From assembly GCA_018267285.1 (NCBI GenBank), contig JAFDYU010000006.1, positions 14,194 to 78,193 of the forward strand: DNA of 64,000 nucleotides, given 5' to 3'. This document shows positions 55,161-64,000 of this stretch, in pieces. The position numbers and the translations under genes were made by a program. This stretch comes from Bacteroidota bacterium. Its GTDB lineage: Bacteria; Bacteroidota; Bacteroidia; Cytophagales; Cyclobacteriaceae. Position 1 is the stretch's first letter, and the number at the start of each line of letters is the position of its first letter. The notes beneath the pieces are model-generated. The model had not been told where the DNA came from. It saw nothing but the letters and a program-made list of their open reading frames with translations, and did not search any database.

Positions 55161-56474
55161 TTATTTTTTGCGACTAGGCCCCGAGCCATCGTTCTCGCGG
55201 TGTGGCAAATTCTTAGCTTCAATATGTGCTGTCCAAATACTGGTTTTACCGTTGTCATTTTGCGTCCAGATTGGTGCGATGAGGCCATCATGCGCATCGA
55301 TGTGGCATGTGCCGTTAAAAATTTTTCCTGTTTCAGGAGAAAACGGGCTTTCGCTGATCTTAACCTCATCGAAAGAATTTCCGCCATCCACAGAGTAGGC
55401 AAGGTAAACATCGGTTTGCAGGTTGTCGTAATTTCTTCGATCATAATAAACGACATAAACGTTCCCGTTAGTAGGGTCAACCGAAATCCAGGGGTGAAAC
55501 TGATGTTTGCCCGGCTCGTCTTTGTTTACGCGCACCGGCTCAGACCAATAGTCGCCATGGTTGCGCGAGCGGATAATCCAGATGTCGGTGTCGTCTTTGC
55601 CCATCGATTGGTCAGCCCACAGCAGGTAAAGCGTTCCTTTAAAAAGTCCGTTGGAATTATCTATTGACAGCAACGGCAAACTAGTGTAGCTCTGCACTCC
55701 CGGTATTTCAATAGACCAGTCAATGGGCTTTTTGAATACGGTTAAATCAGTATCAAGCCATGTGTTGCCATCGTCATACGAACGATCAAAATAAATCTTT
55801 TTTTCGTGTGCCCATGCCGAATACATTTTCCCATCCGTACCAATCGCAAGTGGGGCGTTTGCCATGGTGTTGTCGTAGTTCTCGCAGCCTCCGGAGTTTT
55901 TATTTACTTGGCTGGGGCTCGACCATTTATTTCCGTTCATTGATTTGCTAACGAAAATATTGGATTGGCAACCGGGCTCATTTTTTTCTTTTTTATTGAA
56001 CTGTGTGTAGGATACAAATACAGAATTTTTTTTGGGATGAGCCAAAGGCCAGGCATTACGCTGAGCGACCTCGGAGTTGTTTTCTATGAAAGTTCCTGGA
56101 CTAAACATGGTTTCTTCTTGAAGGTAGTTCTGGCATGCGATGCGGTAAGGCAGCTCACCCGTATTGCTATTATTCAGAATATCGGGAACGTGAAAATAAA
56201 ACAAGGAGCCTTTCGAATTAGAAACAACATAAGGATAAAAGCCCGAACCGGATAATGATTTGAGTGTTTTCTCGTTCCAGGTTTTACCGCCATCGTTGGA
56301 AATCACGAAACTTTCAGCCACAATTCCGGCCACAATATTTTCAGCATTTTTTTTATTTATGGTAATGGTAGGTCTGGGGTTGGTGGTCTGCTCAACGAGC
56401 TTAACATTTTTGTACTGCGAATAAGCAGGGATAGAGAGTGTAACTATTATACTAATAAACATTTTGTTTTTCAT
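55161..56474 (-). CDS. Secreted BNR/Asp-box repeat protein (sialidase-like beta-propeller)
   Basis: Signal peptide from the internal start MKNKMFISIIVTLSIPAYSQ. Asp-box motifs SNDGGKTW, SYDDGNTW, SRNHGDYW and SVDGGNSF. Confidence 0.75.
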   Translation of the reverse strand: MKNKMFISIIVTLSIPAYSQYKNVKLVEQTTNPRPTITINKKNAENIVAGIVAESFVISNDGGKTWNEKTLKSLSGSGFYPYVVSNSKGSLFYFHVPDILNNSNTGELPYRIACQNYLQEETMFSPGTFIENNSEVAQRNAWPLAHPKKNSVFVSYTQFNKKEKNEPGCQSNIFVSKSMNGNKWSSPSQVNKNSGGCENYDNTMANAPLAIGTDGKMYSAWAHEKKIYFDRSYDDGNTWLDTDLTVFKKPIDWSIEIPGVQSYTSLPLLSIDNSNGLFKGTLYLLWADQSMGKDDTDIWIIRSRNHGDYWSEPVRVNKDEPGKHQFHPWISVDPTNGNVYVVYYDRRNYDNLQTDVYLAYSVDGGNSFDEVKISESPFSPETGKIFNGTCHIDAHDGLIAPIWTQNDNGKTSIWTAHIEAKNLPHRENDGSGPSRKK

Positions 56475-56658
56475 AACACCCTGAAACATGGAATACAATT
56501 CTCACTAATATTTCTATTTAATCAAAAAGATTGTTTACTTGATTTTTATTTACCTCCATTTTAATATCTGATGTTACGTCAGCTTTTCAATCATAGTCAG
56601 TCTCTCCGAAGGATTCCTATGGACAATTTGACAACTAACATCAGCTAATATACCCTCT

Positions 56659-57792
56659 GTGAGAACCTGGATCCGACATTCGATATCTTTTATAGAAAAT
56701 GAAAAATCAGGAGGTGTTCTATTGCTGGCCTGCACGATCTTTTCGTTAACATTAGCCAATAGCCAGACTGGAAGTGGTTACACTCATTTTTGGCACACGA
56801 ATTTTTTTTCTAAGCCTCTTGAATTTTGGGTCAATGAGGTATTGATGTCTTTTTTCTTTTTACTGGTAGGCTTAGAGATTAAGCGCGAAATTTTTGTAGG
56901 TGAGCTAAACGATTTTAAGAAGTCAGTTTTGCCGGTGCTTGCTGCATTTGGTGGTATGTTGCTGCCGGCTTTAATTCATTTTGTGTTCAATCACGGCACG
57001 GTAACCCAAAACGGCTACGGTATCCCGATGGCAACGGATATAGCTTTTTCGCTTGGGCTTCTGTCTTTGTTGGGCAAACGAATTCCGCTGTCATCTAAAG
57101 TATTTCTTACCGCATTGGCAATTATTGACGACCTGGGAGCAATCATTATCATTGCGATTTTTTATACCGATCACCTTTCGTTCACACACTTTGGCATGGC
57201 TGCTCTGGTTGCGGCTTCCTTGTTGGTGTTAAATCGGTTACAAGTCTCAAACTCGTTATTTTACCTTGCACTGGGAGGTGCGCTCTGGTATTTTCTTTAT
57301 CGGGCCGGCATCCACCCAACCATTGCGGGCGTTGCGCTAGCTTTTGCCATTCCGCTCGGCACTGGTAACTATAGTTCGTTATCTGCTGTTTGGCAACATC
57401 GGTTACACAAACCGATTACGTTTGTAGTATTGCCCATTTTTGCCATGGCAAATACAGCCATTGTTTTGCCGAATGCGGTTGGCATGGAGCTCCTATCGCA
57501 CAACAGCCTTGGAATATTTTTTGGTTTAGTGCTGGGCAAACCGCTCGGCATTTTTTTGTTTGCTTGGGCTGGTGTAACTCTTGGTTGGTGTGTGCTTCCG
57601 CAGCGTATGCAACTGAAGCACGTGTTTGCGGTGGGTATATTAGCAGGCATTGGGTTTACGATGTCCATATTCATCACCCTGCTTGCTTTTGATGAAACCC
57701 ATCTGGTTGACGAGTCTAAAATGGCTGTACTTTTGGGGTCGTTTGTTTCTGGTACGATCGGGATTTTTGCATTGATGAAGGTTTATCGGTAA
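56659..57792 (+). CDS. nhaA: Na+/H+ antiporter NhaA
   Basis: FIENEKSGGVLLLACTIFSLTLANS, FFLLVGLEIKRE and ALAIIDDLGAIIIIAIFY (the DD motif). GTG start. Confidence 0.88.
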   Translation: MRTWIRHSISFIENEKSGGVLLLACTIFSLTLANSQTGSGYTHFWHTNFFSKPLEFWVNEVLMSFFFLLVGLEIKREIFVGELNDFKKSVLPVLAAFGGMLLPALIHFVFNHGTVTQNGYGIPMATDIAFSLGLLSLLGKRIPLSSKVFLTALAIIDDLGAIIIIAIFYTDHLSFTHFGMAALVAASLLVLNRLQVSNSLFYLALGGALWYFLYRAGIHPTIAGVALAFAIPLGTGNYSSLSAVWQHRLHKPITFVVLPIFAMANTAIVLPNAVGMELLSHNSLGIFFGLVLGKPLGIFLFAWAGVTLGWCVLPQRMQLKHVFAVGILAGIGFTMSIFITLLAFDETHLVDESKMAVLLGSFVSGTIGIFALMKVYR

Positions 57793-57811: not shown

Positions 57812-57842
57812 TTTGTAACTTCGTAAACCTTGCTTATTATTG
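57812..57842 (+). promoter_or_regulatory. Candidate Bacteroidetes sigma-A promoter upstream of the THX gene
   Basis: TTTG (57812-57815), a 19-nt spacer, then TATTATTG (57835-57842), one mismatch to TAnnTTTG. Lies 22 nt upstream of the THX ATG. Confidence 0.35.
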
Positions 57843-57863
57843 CCCCATAATTTTTAAACTTCA

Positions 57864-58046
57864 ATGGGACGAGGAGACAAAAAATCTAAAAAAGGCAAGC
57901 GATCGCACGGATCGTATGGTGTGTCGAGAAACAGAAAAAAAATTAAAACTCGTTTAAAGCGCACGGCAAGTAAGAAGCCTTCAGCTTCTAAAAGTGAAAC
58001 CGCAAAACCTAAAGCTCGTAAAACAGCTAAGAAAAAAGAAGAATAA
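57864..58046 (+). CDS. 30S ribosomal protein THX with lysine-rich C-terminal extension
   Basis: The N-terminus MGRGDKKSKKGKRSHGSYGVSRNRKK follows the Thermus/Bacteroidetes THX pattern MGKGD(R/K)4GK…G(T/S)YG..R.RKK. Confidence 0.8.
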   Translation: MGRGDKKSKKGKRSHGSYGVSRNRKKIKTRLKRTASKKPSASKSETAKPKARKTAKKKEE

Positions 58047-58049
58047 CAC

Positions 58050-58121
58050 ATGAATAAAATCTCTGCAAATGCATGGTGGTGGTACAGATCATTTTTTGAT
58101 CGGTGTCCGGCTATGCCTTAG
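58050..58121 (+). CDS. trp operon leader peptide (23 codons, three consecutive Trp codons)
   Basis: ATG at 58050, MNKISANAWWWYRSFFDRCPAMP, TAG at 58119. TGG TGG TGG at 58074-58082. Followed by a terminator directly upstream of trpE. Confidence 0.7.
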   Translation: MNKISANAWWWYRSFFDRCPAMP

Positions 58122-58146
58122 TGGAAGGTAATTACGATAAAATCAG

Positions 58147-58178
58147 AAGCCCGCCCGATCATTCGAGCGGGCTTTTTT
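58147..58178 (+). terminator. Rho-independent terminator / trp attenuator
   Basis: AAGCCCGC (58147-58154) pairs with GCGGGCTT (58167-58174). The stem is extendable by CGA/TCG around a TCAT tetraloop. A T-run runs through 58178, about 20 nt before the trpE ATG. Confidence 0.8.
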
Positions 58179-58197
58179 ATTTAAAACCATTAAAGGA

Positions 58198-59574
58198 ATG
58201 AAATACAAATTACATACTTATCAAAAAAAGATTCTGGCCGATACACTAACCCCCGTGAATATTTATTTAAAACTCCGCGATGAGTTCATGGGCAGTATTT
58301 TACTCGAAAGTTCCGATTATCACGGACGCGAAAACAGCCTTTCTTTTATTTGCTGCCAGCCAATTGCCTCGCTCGAACTGAAGCGTGATGAAATAGAGCT
58401 TAAATACCCGGACAGCTCATCTAAAAAAATTAAACTTTTAAATAATCGGTTGGAATCGGTTATCGATGAATTTAGAAACTCGTTCGAACTCGATACGCCC
58501 GAGCCACGATTCGGGTTGTTCGGGTACACTGCCTTCGATGCAATCCGTTTTTTCGAGAACGTGGAGATATCCAAACACCAGGATGCGATTCCGGATATGT
58601 TATATAAACTCTACCGGTATGTTATTGTTATCGATCATTTTTCGAACGAAATGACTTTGCTCGAATTTACGGATGGAACCAACACGCTCGATCGGATTGA
58701 GCAACTGATTTTGAGTAACAAGTTTTCTACGTTCAAATTCTACACAACTGGTGAAGAACAATCTAATCTCACCGATGATGATTTTATGAAAATGGTAGAA
58801 AAGGGTAAAGAACATTGTTTTCGGGGTGATGTATTCCAGATTGTATTGTCACGCAGGTTTTCGGTTTCATTTAAAGGGGATGAATTTAATGTATATCGGG
58901 CGCTGAGGTCGATCAATCCATCGCCCTACTTGTTTTATTTCGACTACGGAAATTTTAAACTTTTTGGTTCTTCACCCGAAGCTCAGTTGCAGATAAAAAA
59001 TAACGAGGCGTTCATTTATCCGATAGCCGGAACATTCCGCAGGAGCGGAAGTGATGAAGAAGATGCGGCCTTAGCCGAGCGGCTTGCTGCCGATGAGAAA
59101 GAGAATGCTGAACACGTGATGCTCGTAGATCTGGCCCGAAACGACATGAGCCGCCATGCCGATCAGGTGAAAGTTAACGTTTTCAAAGAAATACAGTTTT
59201 ACTCGCACGTGATACACTTGGTTTCTAAGGTGTCTGGAAAACTACTGAAAGGTTCGTCTGTTGTACGGATGTTTACCGGCACATTCCCGGCCGGAACACT
59301 CTCGGGTGCACCTAAAGTGATGGCCATGAACCTGATTAACAAATACGAAAACATCAACCGCAGTTTTTATGGTGGAGCAATCGGTATGATTGGCTTTGAT
59401 GGTTCGCTAAACAAAGCGATTATGATCCGAACATTCTTAAGTAAGAACAATCAATTGATTTTCCAAGCAGGCAGTGGAATCGTCTCAAGGTCGGTAAAAG
59501 AAAACGAACTCCAAGAAGTGAGCAATAAACTGGCTGCCTTACGCAGAGCCATTAAACAAGCAGAACAAATTTAA
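58198..59574 (+). CDS. trpE: Anthranilate synthase component I
   Basis: 458 aa with LLESSDYHG, SPEAQLQ, GTFPAGTLSGAPK and GGAIGMIGFDG motifs. Confidence 0.92.
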   Translation: MKYKLHTYQKKILADTLTPVNIYLKLRDEFMGSILLESSDYHGRENSLSFICCQPIASLELKRDEIELKYPDSSSKKIKLLNNRLESVIDEFRNSFELDTPEPRFGLFGYTAFDAIRFFENVEISKHQDAIPDMLYKLYRYVIVIDHFSNEMTLLEFTDGTNTLDRIEQLILSNKFSTFKFYTTGEEQSNLTDDDFMKMVEKGKEHCFRGDVFQIVLSRRFSVSFKGDEFNVYRALRSINPSPYLFYFDYGNFKLFGSSPEAQLQIKNNEAFIYPIAGTFRRSGSDEEDAALAERLAADEKENAEHVMLVDLARNDMSRHADQVKVNVFKEIQFYSHVIHLVSKVSGKLLKGSSVVRMFTGTFPAGTLSGAPKVMAMNLINKYENINRSFYGGAIGMIGFDGSLNKAIMIRTFLSKNNQLIFQAGSGIVSRSVKENELQEVSNKLAALRRAIKQAEQI

Positions 59575-59576
59575 TT

Positions 59577-60143
59577 ATGAAAATACTGGTATTAGACAAC
59601 TACGATTCGTTTACGTACAACCTGGTGCACATCCTTCGCGAGCTCGGGCATCAACCGGATGTATTTAGAAACGATCAGATTGATGTTGCAGAAGTTGCGC
59701 GGTACGATAAAATATTAATTTCACCTGGGCCGGGAATCCCGGATGAGGCCGGCATTATGAAACAGCTTATACACAGCTACGCTGCTACAAAAAGCATTTT
59801 GGGAATTTGTCTGGGGCATCAAGGTATTGCCGAATCTTTTGGAGCTCAACTCTACAACCTACCCAATGTATTGCATGGAGTTACTTCGATAACGAAAGTC
59901 ATCGATTCAAAAGAAAAACTCTTCACGGGTGTTGCAGTAAATTTTCAAACTACCCATTACCATTCGTGGGCAGTAAAACCGGAAACCATTCCCCCTGAAT
60001 TGAACGTTACAGCCGTAAACGATGATGGCCTGATTATGGGGTTGAGCCATATTCACTACGATGTGAAAGGATTACAGTTTCACCCCGAGTCGGTGATGAC
60101 AACCGAAGGGCCTAAAATAATTTCGAATTGGTTAAAAAACTGA
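59577..60143 (+). CDS. trpG: Anthranilate synthase component II (glutamine amidotransferase)
   Basis: ILVLDNYDSFTYNLV, ILGICLGHQ and LQFHPES. 188 aa. Confidence 0.9.
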   Translation: MKILVLDNYDSFTYNLVHILRELGHQPDVFRNDQIDVAEVARYDKILISPGPGIPDEAGIMKQLIHSYAATKSILGICLGHQGIAESFGAQLYNLPNVLHGVTSITKVIDSKEKLFTGVAVNFQTTHYHSWAVKPETIPPELNVTAVNDDGLIMGLSHIHYDVKGLQFHPESVMTTEGPKIISNWLKN

Positions 60144-60227: not shown

Positions 60228-61211
60228 GTGAAAAAAATACTTAGTGAATTAATCGAGCATCGATCCTTGAGCAAGGAAACAGCGCGACAAGTGTTGATCG
60301 ATTTGGCTTCGGGTAAATTCAATCCTAGCCAGGTTTCATCGTTTATAACGGTGTACATGATGCGCGGTGTTACACTTGATGAGCTTGCCGGCTTTCGCGA
60401 TGCCATGCTGGAGCTGTGTGTGCCCGTTTCATTCGATCAGCCCGTGATGGACTTGTGCGGTACCGGAGGCGATGCAAAAAATACGTTTAATATCTCAACA
60501 CTTTCATCGTTTGTGGTGGCCGCAGCTGGTCAGCCTGTGGCCAAACACGGCAACTATGGGGTTTCTTCGCTCTCCGGTTCCTCCAATGTTATGGAGTATT
60601 TTGGGTATCGGTTTACAAACGATGTTGACGAACTGAAGAAATCATTGGAGCGGGCAAACATTTGTTTTATGCACGCACCTTTGTTTCACCCCGCAATGAA
60701 AAACGTTGCACCGATTCGAAAAGAACTGGGTGTAAAAACATTTTTTAACATGCTCGGACCAATGGTAAACCCCGCTTTCCCGAAGATACAACTGGTGGGC
60801 GTTTTTAATTTAGAGCTTGCACGTCAATATGCTTACTTATATCAGCAAACCGAGAAACAGTTTGTGATCGTACATTCGGTGGACGGCTATGATGAAGTTT
60901 CGTTGACAAGCCCGACAAAAGTTTTTTTTAACGGGGGTGAGTTGTTGCTCGAACCCGAAGATGTTAAAATGAAATTATTGCCAGACGATTTGCGGGGAGG
61001 GGATTCGGTTGAAGAATCGGCAACTATTTTTATGCGAATTTTAGAAGGCAAGGGTACAAGCCAACAAAATGCAGCCGTTATTGCCAATGCCGGAATGGCC
61101 TTGTTTTGCGCAAATCAAAACAAAGAGTTGAACACTTGTTTACTTAAAGCGGAAGAAGCACTTGAATCCGGGAAAGCGTTAAAAGCATTTAAGCAGTTGC
61201 TCAGTAAATAA
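60228..61211 (+). CDS. trpD: Anthranilate phosphoribosyltransferase
   Basis: MDLCGTGGDAKNTFNIST, VAKHGN and LGPMVNP. GTG start. Confidence 0.9.
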   Translation: MKKILSELIEHRSLSKETARQVLIDLASGKFNPSQVSSFITVYMMRGVTLDELAGFRDAMLELCVPVSFDQPVMDLCGTGGDAKNTFNISTLSSFVVAAAGQPVAKHGNYGVSSLSGSSNVMEYFGYRFTNDVDELKKSLERANICFMHAPLFHPAMKNVAPIRKELGVKTFFNMLGPMVNPAFPKIQLVGVFNLELARQYAYLYQQTEKQFVIVHSVDGYDEVSLTSPTKVFFNGGELLLEPEDVKMKLLPDDLRGGDSVEESATIFMRILEGKGTSQQNAAVIANAGMALFCANQNKELNTCLLKAEEALESGKALKAFKQLLSK

Positions 61212-61219
61212 GATTGCCA

Positions 61220-62011
61220 ATGAATATTTTAGAAAAAATAGTGCTGAAGAAGAAAACAGAAATTACTGACCGGAAAGCGTCCGCACCGATTAATGTTTTG
61301 GAAAAGAGCTCATTGTTTAAAAGAAAAACGGTTTCCTTGAAGCATGCTCTTCAGAATGGTAGGCATGGTATCATTGCTGAATTCAAAAGAAAATCTCCAT
61401 CCAAAGGAATTATCAATTCGATGGCATCTGTTAGAAATGTTACAAACGGTTATGTTCAGGCCGGGGCAAGTGCTTTATCCGTACTTACGGATGAAGAGTT
61501 TTTTGGTGGCAGCAATCAAGATTTAGTTACTGCAAGAAAATCTAATTCATGCCCGATACTTCGAAAAGATTTTATTATTGATGAATATCAGATTGTTGAA
61601 GCCAAGGCCATTGGGGCGGATGTGATCTTGTTAATTGCCGCAATATTAACACCGCAACAAGTAAAGAGCTTTAGCATCTTAGCCGGCTCGCTTGGCCTCG
61701 AAGTTTTGCTTGAAATCCATGACGAAGAAGAATTGAAAGCAAATTATGATTCTAATATTGGATTGATAGGTGTAAACAACCGAAATTTAAAAACCTTCGA
61801 AGTGGATGTAGAAAATTCGAAAAAGCTTTCGGAACTCATTCCCAAAGGAGCAGCCCGAATTTCCGAGAGCGGAATTAATTCCCCCAACACCATCATCGAA
61901 TTAAGAAAGTTTGGTTTTAAAGGTTTTTTGATGGGCGAAAATTTTATGAAACATCCTAATCCGGTAGTGGCAGCAAATGATTTTTTCACAAAACTCTCCG
62001 AACTGTCATGA
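61220..62011 (+). CDS. trpC: Indole-3-glycerol phosphate synthase
   Basis: IIAEFKRKSPSKG, LSVLTDEEFFGGS, ILRKDFIIDEYQI and GVNNRNL. Confidence 0.9.
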   Translation: MNILEKIVLKKKTEITDRKASAPINVLEKSSLFKRKTVSLKHALQNGRHGIIAEFKRKSPSKGIINSMASVRNVTNGYVQAGASALSVLTDEEFFGGSNQDLVTARKSNSCPILRKDFIIDEYQIVEAKAIGADVILLIAAILTPQQVKSFSILAGSLGLEVLLEIHDEEELKANYDSNIGLIGVNNRNLKTFEVDVENSKKLSELIPKGAARISESGINSPNTIIELRKFGFKGFLMGENFMKHPNPVVAANDFFTKLSELS

Positions 62012-62634
62012 ACAAGTTGAAAGTAAAAATCTGCGGAATGCGAGACCCAACAAATATTCTGGAAGTGGCCTCACTCGCTCCCGATTTTATGGGGTTTATT
62101 TTTTATGAAAAATCGAAACGATACGTGGGCAAAGATTTTAAAATACCCGAACTATTTCCTTCCGTTATAAAAAAAATTGGCGTGTTTGTTAATCAATCAA
62201 TAGACGAAATAGCTTTGCTGGCCAAGAAACATTCGCTTGATTACGCCCAACTACACGGAAATGAATCGGCTGATTTTTGCTTCAAGCTGAAAAATAAAAT
62301 TAAAGTGATTAAAGCTTTTTTAATCGATGAATCTTTTGATTTTTCGGAAACGGAAAAATACTGCAGTGTAGATTATTTTCTCTTCGATTCTAAATCTACC
62401 GACTATGGAGGTTCCGGTAAAACATTTGATTGGAACTTATTGCATAAGTTCCATGGCAATACACCGTTTTTCTTAAGTGGAGGTTTATCTGTCGAGAATC
62501 TCACTGACTTAAAAAAAATTCCTAATGCCAACTTTTACGCAATAGACATCAACAGTAAGGCCGAATCGGTCCCTGTCCTAAAAGACATGAATATTCTACA
62601 CTCGATGTTTAAAACATTAAACAATAATTCTTGA
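62008..62634 (+). CDS. trpF: Phosphoribosylanthranilate isomerase
   Basis: KVKICGMRD (catalytic Cys), QLHGNE, FLFDS…GGSGKTFDW and FLSGGL. ATGA overlap with trpC. Confidence 0.88.
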
Positions 62635-62650
62635 TTTTAATTCTTTCATC

Positions 62651-63847
62651 ATGAAATACACAGTTGATAAACGAGGCTACTATGGAAACTTTGGAGGTGC
62701 ATATATTCCTGAAATGCTTTACCCAAATGTAGAAGAACTCAGGTCTAAATATGAGCAGATTATCGAATCTGATGATTTCCAAAGAGAATTTATGCATCTG
62801 CTAAAAAATTACGTAGGTAGGCCAACTCCCTTGTTTTTAGCCAAACGCCTTTCAGAAAAACACAATGCTACCATTTATTTAAAACGCGAAGATCTTTGCC
62901 ACACCGGTGCGCACAAAATTAACAACACCATTGGGCAAATTTTGCTCGCCAAAAAATTAGGCAAGCAAAAAATCATTGCCGAAACAGGTGCCGGGCAACA
63001 TGGAGTGGCCACAGCAACAGTTTGCGCACTCATGGGCATGGAGTGTGTAGTATACATGGGGCAACTCGACATGGAACGGCAGCGGCCTAACGTAGAACGA
63101 ATGGCTATTCTCGGGGCAAAAGTTGTTCCGGCTACGTCAGGCAAAATGACTTTGAAAGATGCAACCAACGAAGCCATGCGCCACTGGATAAACCACCCGG
63201 TGGATACGCATTACATTATCGGCTCGGTTGTAGGGCCACATCCTTACCCCGACATGGTGGCCAAGTTTCAATCGGTGATTAGCGATGAAATAAAAAAACA
63301 ACTGACAGAGGAAACAGGCAATCCTTTTCCCGATTATGTAATTGCTTGCGTGGGGGGTGGCAGCAACGCGGCTGGTGCGTTTTATCATTTTCTCAACCAT
63401 GAGCATGTAAAATTGATCGGTGTGGAAGCAGCCGGCAAAGGTGTGGATACGAACGAGTCAGCGGCCACTACAGTGCTTGGAAAAATTGGAATCCTTCACG
63501 GCAGTAAATCACTTTTAATGCAAACAGGCGATGGGCAGGTAATTGAACCGTACTCCATTTCGGCAGGGCTTGATTATCCCGGTATCGGCCCTATGCACGC
63601 GCATTTGTTTGAAACCGGGCGAGTTACTTTTTTGAACGCAACCGATGAAGAGGCCATGCAGGCCGGGGTTGAACTGAGCAGGCTCGAAGGAATAATCCCG
63701 GCCATTGAAAGTGCCCATGCCGTTGCTGCGCTCTCGAAACTTGAACTGAATCAGGAAGATGTTGTGGTTATCAATCTTTCGGGGCGTGGAGATAAAGATA
63801 TGGACACGTACATCAAATGGGGAAAATATAAATCGGAAATTTTTTAA
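62651..63847 (+). CDS. trpB: Tryptophan synthase beta chain
   Basis: [10 protein letters not shown], the [14 protein letters not shown]-lysine motif, [10 protein letters not shown] and GGGSNAAG. Confidence 0.95.
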
Positions 63848-63861
63848 TTTTTGAAACAGAA

Positions 63862-64000
63862 ATGAAAAACAGAATCAATTATCTTTTTGAAAAAAAAAAT
63901 AAAGAAATCCTTTCCATCTTTTTCACGGCCGGGTTTCCCACTTTGAACGACACCGTAACCATTGCCATTGCTTTAGAAAAAGCAGGAGCCGACATAATCG
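63862..64000 (+). CDS. trpA: Tryptophan synthase alpha chain (5' part, runs off the window)
   Basis: Translation MKNRINYLFEKKNKEILSIFFTAGFPTLNDTVTIAIALEKAGADII matches the TrpA N-terminus. It is positioned after trpB. Confidence 0.8.
   Translation, partial: MKNRINYLFEKKNKEILSIFFTAGFPTLNDTVTIAIALEKAGADII

Follow-up and report, generated by a model that had tools for sequence, protein, structure and literature searches.

The trp leader peptide of a Cyclobacteriaceae bacterium lies directly behind the gene for ribosomal protein bTHX and is probably transcribed with it

From which promoter is a trp operon transcribed when its leader peptide gene begins 3 nucleotides (nt) behind the stop codon of a ribosomal-protein gene? 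This question is raised by a stretch of 64,000 nt from a Bacteroidota bacterium of the family Cyclobacteriaceae (contig JAFDYU010000006.1 of assembly GCA_018267285.1), which we call the window. In leader-peptide attenuation, the textbook example of coupling between transcription and translation, the leader has to our knowledge always been described as the first cistron of its own transcript. In the window, the gene for 30S ribosomal protein bTHX (57864-58046, plus strand; THX hereafter) ends with the stop codon TAA at 58044-58046 and is followed by the spacer CAC (58047-58049). The leader open reading frame (ORF; 58050-58121, plus strand) contains three consecutive UGG Trp codons (58074-58082) and precedes a predicted intrinsic terminator and trpE (58198-59574, plus strand). 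A first-pass annotation of this DNA had placed the leader ATG at 58050, 3 nt after the THX stop codon, and all of its coordinates hold. Our analysis suggests that THX, the leader and trpEGDCFBA probably make up one transcription unit, which would start at a promoter upstream of THX and would be controlled by attenuation at the leader.

Conservation and origin of the THX-leader-trpE layout

The THX gene encodes 60 amino acids and has no Trp codon, and its protein starts with MGRGDKKSKKGKR. The protein scores 39.6 bits against the NCBIfam equivalog model TIGR04560 (ribo_THX; cut-off 26) and covers model positions 1-26 of 26, while its Pfam Thx match is sub-threshold (19.7 vs 29.7). It also matches the bTHX chains from solved mitochondrial, chloroplast and Thermus ribosomes. 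Judged by these matches, the ORF encodes a true 30S ribosomal protein bTHX. It is the sole match to the THX model in the source genome, a 3.33-Mb draft of 25 contigs that is 97.7% complete; a second THX gene, which would make the window copy dispensable, was therefore rejected for this genome. Of 121 genomes sampled from the family, 46 gave no match to the model, and many of these are 99-100% complete; over much of the family, THX thus seems to be dispensable or to have diverged too far. Some relatives carry long Lys/Ala/Pro-rich C-terminal tails on THX (L115, 369-1022; L116, 300-743; L123, 239-499), the longest of these proteins reaching 217 amino acids against 60 in the window. In two metagenome-assembled genomes (L045 and L038) the THX frame is shifted, by assembly error or by decay, and the leader and trpE are intact.

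The THX model was searched in 40 relatives. Twenty-two genomes of the window's own genus matched and 20 of them were examined as loci; THX, a leader with three tandem Trp codons (WWW), a terminator and trpE follow one another in 19 of the 20. The exception (L013, genome G023) has THX and then a plain terminator. Adjacency of THX and trpE was not seen in nine other families of the order. When public genomes were searched with TrpE as the anchor, about 45 assemblies of Cytophagales showed the layout; their labels are Cyclobacteriaceae, Roseivirgaceae, Flammeovirgaceae, Chryseolinea, Ohtaekwangia or Chryseosolibacter, and they include the isolates Parachryseolinea silvisoli (L048) and Dawidia cretensis PWU5 (L049). 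Altogether, the THX-leader-trpE layout was found in 58 fetched loci from independent assemblies. WWW leaders without an upstream THX occur in Flavobacteriales, Chitinophagales, Marivirga and one Cyclobacteriaceae metagenome-assembled genome.

We also took a census of the family with one genome for each of 120 genera. The tight layout, which we call fused, is present in ten of them, the window's own genus and nine more, with the gaps verified on the sequences. In a further ten or so genera, THX is the next gene upstream of the leader, at a distance of 20-165 nt; in another ten or so it lies on the same strand, 1-10 kb upstream and separated by other genes. In the remaining sampled genera, THX and leader are unlinked or THX has no match; the unlinked tally includes one unpublished genome (G151), which no other claim uses. 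Because the adjacency is conserved in the 58 loci and in the nine further genera, it is not a product of chance. The idea that THX and leader came together by accident in the source genome, or through faulty assembly, and are functionally unrelated could draw on the draft state of the 25-contig assembly and on nothing else. This idea is refuted by the conservation across independent assemblies, the two isolates and 10 of 120 genera, and we give it next to no credence.

The history of the layout was followed on a TrpE tree (FastTree, 97 sequences), in which one sequence on a very long branch (L130), probably a wrongly picked frame, was ignored. TrpE identity within the fused clade falls to about 56%. 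All 40 tight loci with a complete TrpE stand in a single branch with 99% local support; the branch holds just one further row, whose contig breaks off 57 nt before trpE. Because the tight loci are monophyletic on this tree, the THX-leader fusion probably arose once and was then inherited, with the loosely linked forms outside the clade. The first-pass annotation had proposed to look for conserved synteny in related genomes, and the order THX-leader-trpE is indeed kept across a deep, monophyletic clade.

Two genomes of the window's genus, G067 and G023, have no trp operon that we could find, and their THX is monocistronic with a plain terminator. In G067, which is 100% complete, no trpE was found, only a distant trpB-like gene; THX (L140, 293-545) is kept with a TAATATTG box upstream and its own simple terminator. 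Both genomes are probably Trp auxotrophs that lost the leader and the operon and kept THX. In several other genera of the family, tandem WWW leader ORFs precede trpE (L124, 463-510 and 583-645; L116, 764-853 and 919-984; L129, 390-440 and 518-583). In L128, the leader (625-684) is preceded by an earlier WWW frame in the THX-leader spacer, and this earlier frame is followed by a terminator-like hairpin and T-run of its own. The presence of two WWW leaders suggests tandem attenuators in these genera.

The promoter upstream of THX and the region behind it

Upstream of THX, the window has a -33-like element, TTTG, at 57812-57815 (plus strand), in the conserved context TTTTGTAA. After a 19-nt spacer it is followed by TATTATTG at 57835-57842; the full -7-like element, TATTATTGC, spans 57835-57843 and corresponds to the clade consensus TAtAnTTGC. 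The same arrangement, TTTTG(T/G)AA, then 18-20 nt (mode 19), then TAtAnTTGC, stands upstream of THX in 54 of 56 non-redundant loci. Across these 54 loci the T, A, T, T and G of the -7 box are invariant, and in related loci the box ends 16-26 nt upstream of the THX ATG. For scoring the window, we used a leave-one-out matrix trained on the loci of other genomes only. The site with its box at 57835 reaches 25.2 bits, the top score on both strands of the window, where the runner-up reaches 15.8 and the maximum of 20 shuffles is 18.4. By its sequence, the site is a Bacteroidota-type -33/-7 promoter with one position relaxed. A sigma-70-type scan found promoter-like sites no more often than in shuffles and is therefore uninformative for a Bacteroidota genome.

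Between this site and the leader, no second promoter was detected. The consensus TAnnTTTG is absent from THX and spacer in the window and in all 56 related loci. The relaxed form TAnnnTTG is present in six of the 56, at scattered positions that are not conserved. Inside THX and spacer, the median best score of the THX-promoter matrix is -6.4 bits, against 28 at the real site. We trained an independent matrix on the TAnnTTTG sites of unfused Bacteroidota leaders, 30 of 37 of which have this box 12-32 nt upstream of the ATG. On the 110 nt before fused leaders this matrix gives a median of -22 and a maximum of -10.9; equal-sized coding windows in trpE, which served as the control, give a median of -16.4 and a 95th percentile of -6.3. 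These results agree with the first-pass annotation, which had seen no TAnnTTTG-type motif in THX and had placed the only promoter-like element upstream of it; that element is also the sole conserved promoter in the relatives.

The loosely linked relatives (n = 9) score from -6.6 to +16.8 with the same unfused-leader matrix. Eight of them (-3.8 to +16.8) lie above the 95th percentile of the control and the ninth, at -6.6, just under it. In most of these relatives a TAnnTTTG-like box is visible 8-15 nt before the leader ATG, and in most there is no terminator after THX. Because they carry a box squeezed between THX and leader, an independent trp promoter beside THX is probably the ancestral state. 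In many unfused loci of Flavobacteriales and Chitinophagales (L068-L110), TAnnTTTG stands merely 12-17 nt before the leader ATG, and the leader-peptide mRNA of such loci would be leaderless or nearly so.

The comparative scans and their controls, including G067, lead us to assign the promoter to THX; the trp operon of the fused clade has no promoter of its own that these scans detect. The main rival to co-transcription is a cryptic promoter inside THX, non-canonical or used by another sigma factor, which would drive the leader and the trp genes while the THX transcripts merely share the hairpin. Since loosely linked relatives in the family have a box between THX and leader, a remnant of it might persist in fused loci. 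The motif evidence speaks against such a promoter. The exact consensus is never present in THX and spacer, the few relaxed matches keep no common position, and neither of two different matrices scores the region above control coding DNA. In addition, the last THX codons are Lys/Glu-rich and thus A/G-rich, a poor fit to a T-rich box. Searches by exact consensus, relaxed consensus, THX-promoter matrix and unfused-leader matrix all left no internal candidate, and we consider a cryptic promoter quite improbable.

The attenuator and the THX-leader junction

With the promoter assigned to THX, the leader would be the second cistron of its message. It has 23 codons, ends with a stop codon at 58119-58121 and encodes MNKISANAWWWYRSFFDRCPAMP. 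The peptide core A-W-W-W-H-R/K-S..D-R/M/L/W, with WWW or rarely WW, is kept in all related loci. Four segments of the plus-strand RNA can be assigned to the predicted switch. Segment 1 (GAUCA, 58087-58091) lies 2-3 codons past the Trp codons and would form the 1:2 hairpin with UGAUC of segment 2 (58097-58112). Segment 2 may instead pair, through UGAUCGG..GGCU, with segment 3 (58146-58161), which includes CCGAUC at 58155-58160. Segment 3 is also the 5' arm, and segment 4 (58163-58175) the 3' arm, of a GC-rich terminator stem-loop (58146-58175) 20 nt before trpE. The T-run of this predicted intrinsic terminator, TTTTTTATTT (58173-58182), is conserved in an alignment of 56 loci (A1).

Folding of the unmasked leader RNA gives -47.6 kcal/mol, with a stem that takes in the Trp codons; its core is the 1:2 hairpin (58087-58091 with 58097-58101), and the 3:4 terminator also forms. 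A slightly longer stretch of the leader RNA has z = -4.0. A ribosome stalled on the third Trp codon was simulated by masking the RNA to 58095 and leaving out the 3' arm of the terminator. The minimum-energy fold is then the antiterminator, in which 58097-58112 pairs with 58148-58161 (-19.7 kcal/mol). The element therefore has the parts of a leader-peptide attenuator, namely an ORF with Trp codons, an intrinsic terminator before trpE and a predicted antiterminator that is favoured by stalling. At 21.6 bits against a threshold of 41, it is not a member of the Rfam family RF00513 (Trp_leader). The Rfam search returned sub-threshold matches only, around the terminator, and no curated family covers the element. 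In the sigma-70-type scan, the hairpin of the attenuator was reported as terminator-like for the minus strand alone (58147-58174, tail CTGATTTTAT), although its plus-strand T-run is plain; the hairpin thus looks like a two-way terminator, and no convergent gene lies downstream.

Covariation was assessed in an alignment of 27 loci sharing the same terminator type. For the terminator, pairing holds in 93.8% of cells, and compensatory changes are seen in 6 of its 12 pairs. The 1:2 hairpin has 75.7% of cells paired and changes on both sides in 3 of 7 pairs, and the antiterminator 92.3% of cells paired, with G-C to A-U swaps in three sequences. The pairing of all three structures drops sharply when the partner columns are slid. 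Compensatory changes thus back the predicted hairpin and terminator well, and the antiterminator thinly. In a second subgroup, the leader word GUGAACAGC and the terminator word GCUGUUCAC take the places of GAUCGG and CCGAUC of the first group, and this replacement is a wholesale compensatory change of the predicted antiterminator. Two switch designs are seen across the 56 fused loci of A1, one with GAUCGG (58098-58103), CCGAUC (58155-58160) and a long terminator, the other with GUGAACAGC, GCUGUUCAC and a short terminator with a UUCA loop. The ends of the leader peptides track the design, ..DR(C..) with GAUCGG and ..D(M/L/W) with GUGAACAGC.

No promoter-like box and no terminator were found between THX and the leader, and the window has no hairpin between THX and the attenuator. 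As the only terminator after THX, the attenuator hairpin would also terminate the THX message. We infer co-transcription, a restart at the junction and a response to tryptophan, in the following steps. RNA polymerase would start ~15 nt before the THX ATG, with a ribosome translating THX close behind. At the THX stop codon, this ribosome or its 30S subunit would restart 3 nt downstream on the leader. When charged tRNA-Trp is present, the ribosome would reach the leader stop codon and cover segment 2, leading to the 3:4 terminator, and Trp-replete cells would make a short mRNA, roughly 330 nt long, that carries THX and the leader. Under a shortage of tRNA-Trp, the ribosome would stall at UGG-UGG-UGG and cover segment 1. 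Segment 2 would then pair with the 5' arm of the terminator, and the polymerase would continue into trpE. Attenuation on a shared transcript would therefore make the hairpin both the normal end of the THX mRNA and the regulated gate of the trp operon. The first-pass annotation had proposed such a shared transcript; what it predicted at the level of sequence has stood up to comparison, and from this we infer co-transcription itself.

The junction between the two cistrons is short throughout the fused clade. The gap from THX stop to leader ATG is between -4 and +8 nt in 51 of the 58 loci and 0 or less in 12, and both ATGA and TAATG overlaps are present. Intact loci range from -8 to +20 nt and the nine further genera from -8 to +19 nt; the lone gap of 64 nt belongs to L038, whose THX frame is broken by a frameshift. 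A read-through or fusion protein of THX and leader was considered and rejected. The frame relation varies among loci, with gaps that are not multiples of 3, and we are therefore dealing with two cistrons. The proximity of stop and start that is expected of a translationally coupled pair is seen here and is conserved across the loci. A near-zero spacer that is kept across so deep a clade points to a restart of translation at the junction, and translational coupling of THX and leader is likely.

Bacteroidota initiate translation without Shine-Dalgarno pairing. In such bacteria, a restart at the junction would ensure that the polymerase enters the leader with a ribosome behind it. We advance tentatively, and with somewhat more doubt than conviction, the idea that THX may be an obligatory ribosome-delivery cistron for the trp leader in the fused clade. 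Alternatively, THX and leader share a transcript but not their ribosomes: translation of the leader would begin anew at the A-rich junction, and the short gap would reflect ordinary operon compaction. Where Bacteroidota leaders are unfused, they are evidently translated without an upstream cistron, from 5' ends that are very short, and other junctions in the trp operon are equally tight. Some fused loci have gaps of 12-20 nt, and folding of the window found no structure occluding the leader ATG, which would force coupling. However, most gaps have stayed within a few nucleotides despite deep divergence, the ATGA and TAATG overlaps are typical of coupled genes, and the loosely linked relatives tolerate gaps of 20-165 nt only in the presence of a promoter box, which is visible in most of them. 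Fresh initiation seems to us unlikely, with enough behind it to be taken seriously.

The last two of the points in its favour also weigh against coupled restart on a shared transcript as a whole, since the wider gaps in several loci mean that very tight spacing is not obligatory. Further points on the same side concern the individual signals. The -7 box, TAtAnTTGC, is one position off the Bacteroidota consensus TAnnTTTG, and a non-canonical or other-sigma promoter inside THX might escape motif searches. The relatedness of the loci partly inflates the covariation counts and their controls, and the counts lean towards the structures, which come from the same sequences. In addition, the promoter and terminator calls are all sequence-based.

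The operon, known systems and the biology of the clade

Behind the leader, the trp genes follow on the plus strand. The trpE product, anthranilate synthase component I, has its best match to TIGR00564 (trpE_most; E 1.7e-123, 413 bits) and does not reach the curated cut-off of this model, 517.7. NCBIfam matches identify trpG (59577-60143), trpD (60228-61211), trpC (61214-62011), trpF (62008-62634) and trpB (62651-63847), and the junctions between these genes are tight or overlapping. The last frame, a putative trpA that starts at 63862, is cut by the end of the window at 64000 and is named by position only; its 46-amino-acid piece had no family match. Upstream of THX, nhaA ends at 57792 on the same strand. 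Upstream of nhaA, a 445-amino-acid BNR-repeat (sialidase-fold-like) protein is encoded on the minus strand (55161-56498), and its family matches are weak.

A trp attenuator on a transcript shared with THX can be compared with several known arrangements. The element resembles E. coli trpL in the tandem Trp codons of its short ORF, in its 1:2 hairpin and 2:3 antiterminator, and in its 3:4 terminator, whose T-run stands directly before trpE; the predicted switch logic is identical. Where trpL has two Trp codons, the leader here has three, and it is not the first cistron of its mRNA but stands behind a ribosomal-protein gene, with no promoter detected that would serve it alone. The order of THX, attenuator and trp genes is shared by the E. 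coli rpsU-dnaG-rpoD and rplT-pheM-pheST arrangements, where a partial or regulated terminator separates a ribosomal-protein gene from the non-ribosomal genes behind it. The rpsU terminator does not sense an amino acid. At pheST, a leader-peptide attenuator does stand after a ribosomal-protein gene, and there pheST is served by a promoter, and rplT by a terminator, of its own. The WWW leaders of Flavobacteriales and Chitinophagales (..N-x-W-W-W..) look homologous to the leader of the window and likewise have a terminator before trpE; unlike it, they have their own TAnnTTTG 12-32 nt before the ATG and no upstream THX.

In Bacillus subtilis, transcripts from the upstream aroF promoter run into the trp attenuator. 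The B. subtilis trp operon is inserted into a six-gene aro operon (PMC1173090). As in this supraoperon, the attenuator of the window would lie within a longer unit and gate RNA that already carries upstream genes. The B. subtilis system differs in its sensor, which is the TRAP protein and not a translating ribosome, in its upstream genes, which belong to the aromatic pathway, and in the promoter that trp retains for itself. In the Pseudomonas serC...cmk-rpsA supraoperon, aromatic-pathway genes and a ribosomal-protein gene are in one string (cited in PMC1173090). The fused loci also join aromatic amino-acid genes and a ribosomal-protein gene in a conserved gene string. In Pseudomonas, the S1 gene comes last and no leader-peptide attenuator is known to join the parts, whereas THX comes first and abuts the leader. 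A literature search that did not take in two key reviews found no leader peptide directly behind a ribosomal-protein gene and no link between THX and trp.

The fused loci show that the trp leader has been kept in second position, right at the end of a ribosomal-protein gene, by a clade of soil and freshwater Cytophagales. With a single hairpin, such a locus would both terminate a ribosomal-protein mRNA constitutively and gate a biosynthetic operon by sensing an amino acid. The relatives offer apparent intermediates, from unlinked genes through distant linkage and adjacency with an own box to fusion, and with them a system for studying operon merger and promoter loss. For annotation, the trp promoter of such organisms is to be expected upstream of THX. 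The locus also poses a testable question, namely whether an attenuator in a bacterium without Shine-Dalgarno-directed initiation gains from a ribosome that is handed over by the upstream cistron.

If THX does deliver the ribosome to the leader, the attenuator would be read by a ribosome fresh from finishing a ribosomal protein, and the charging of tRNA-Trp would be reported only while general translation is healthy. Stalling in the Lys/Arg-rich THX frame would then lead to super-attenuation. In addition, the ceiling of trp operon expression would follow the growth-rate control of a ribosomal-protein promoter. A tie between tryptophan synthesis and ribosome synthesis in this clade is plausible.

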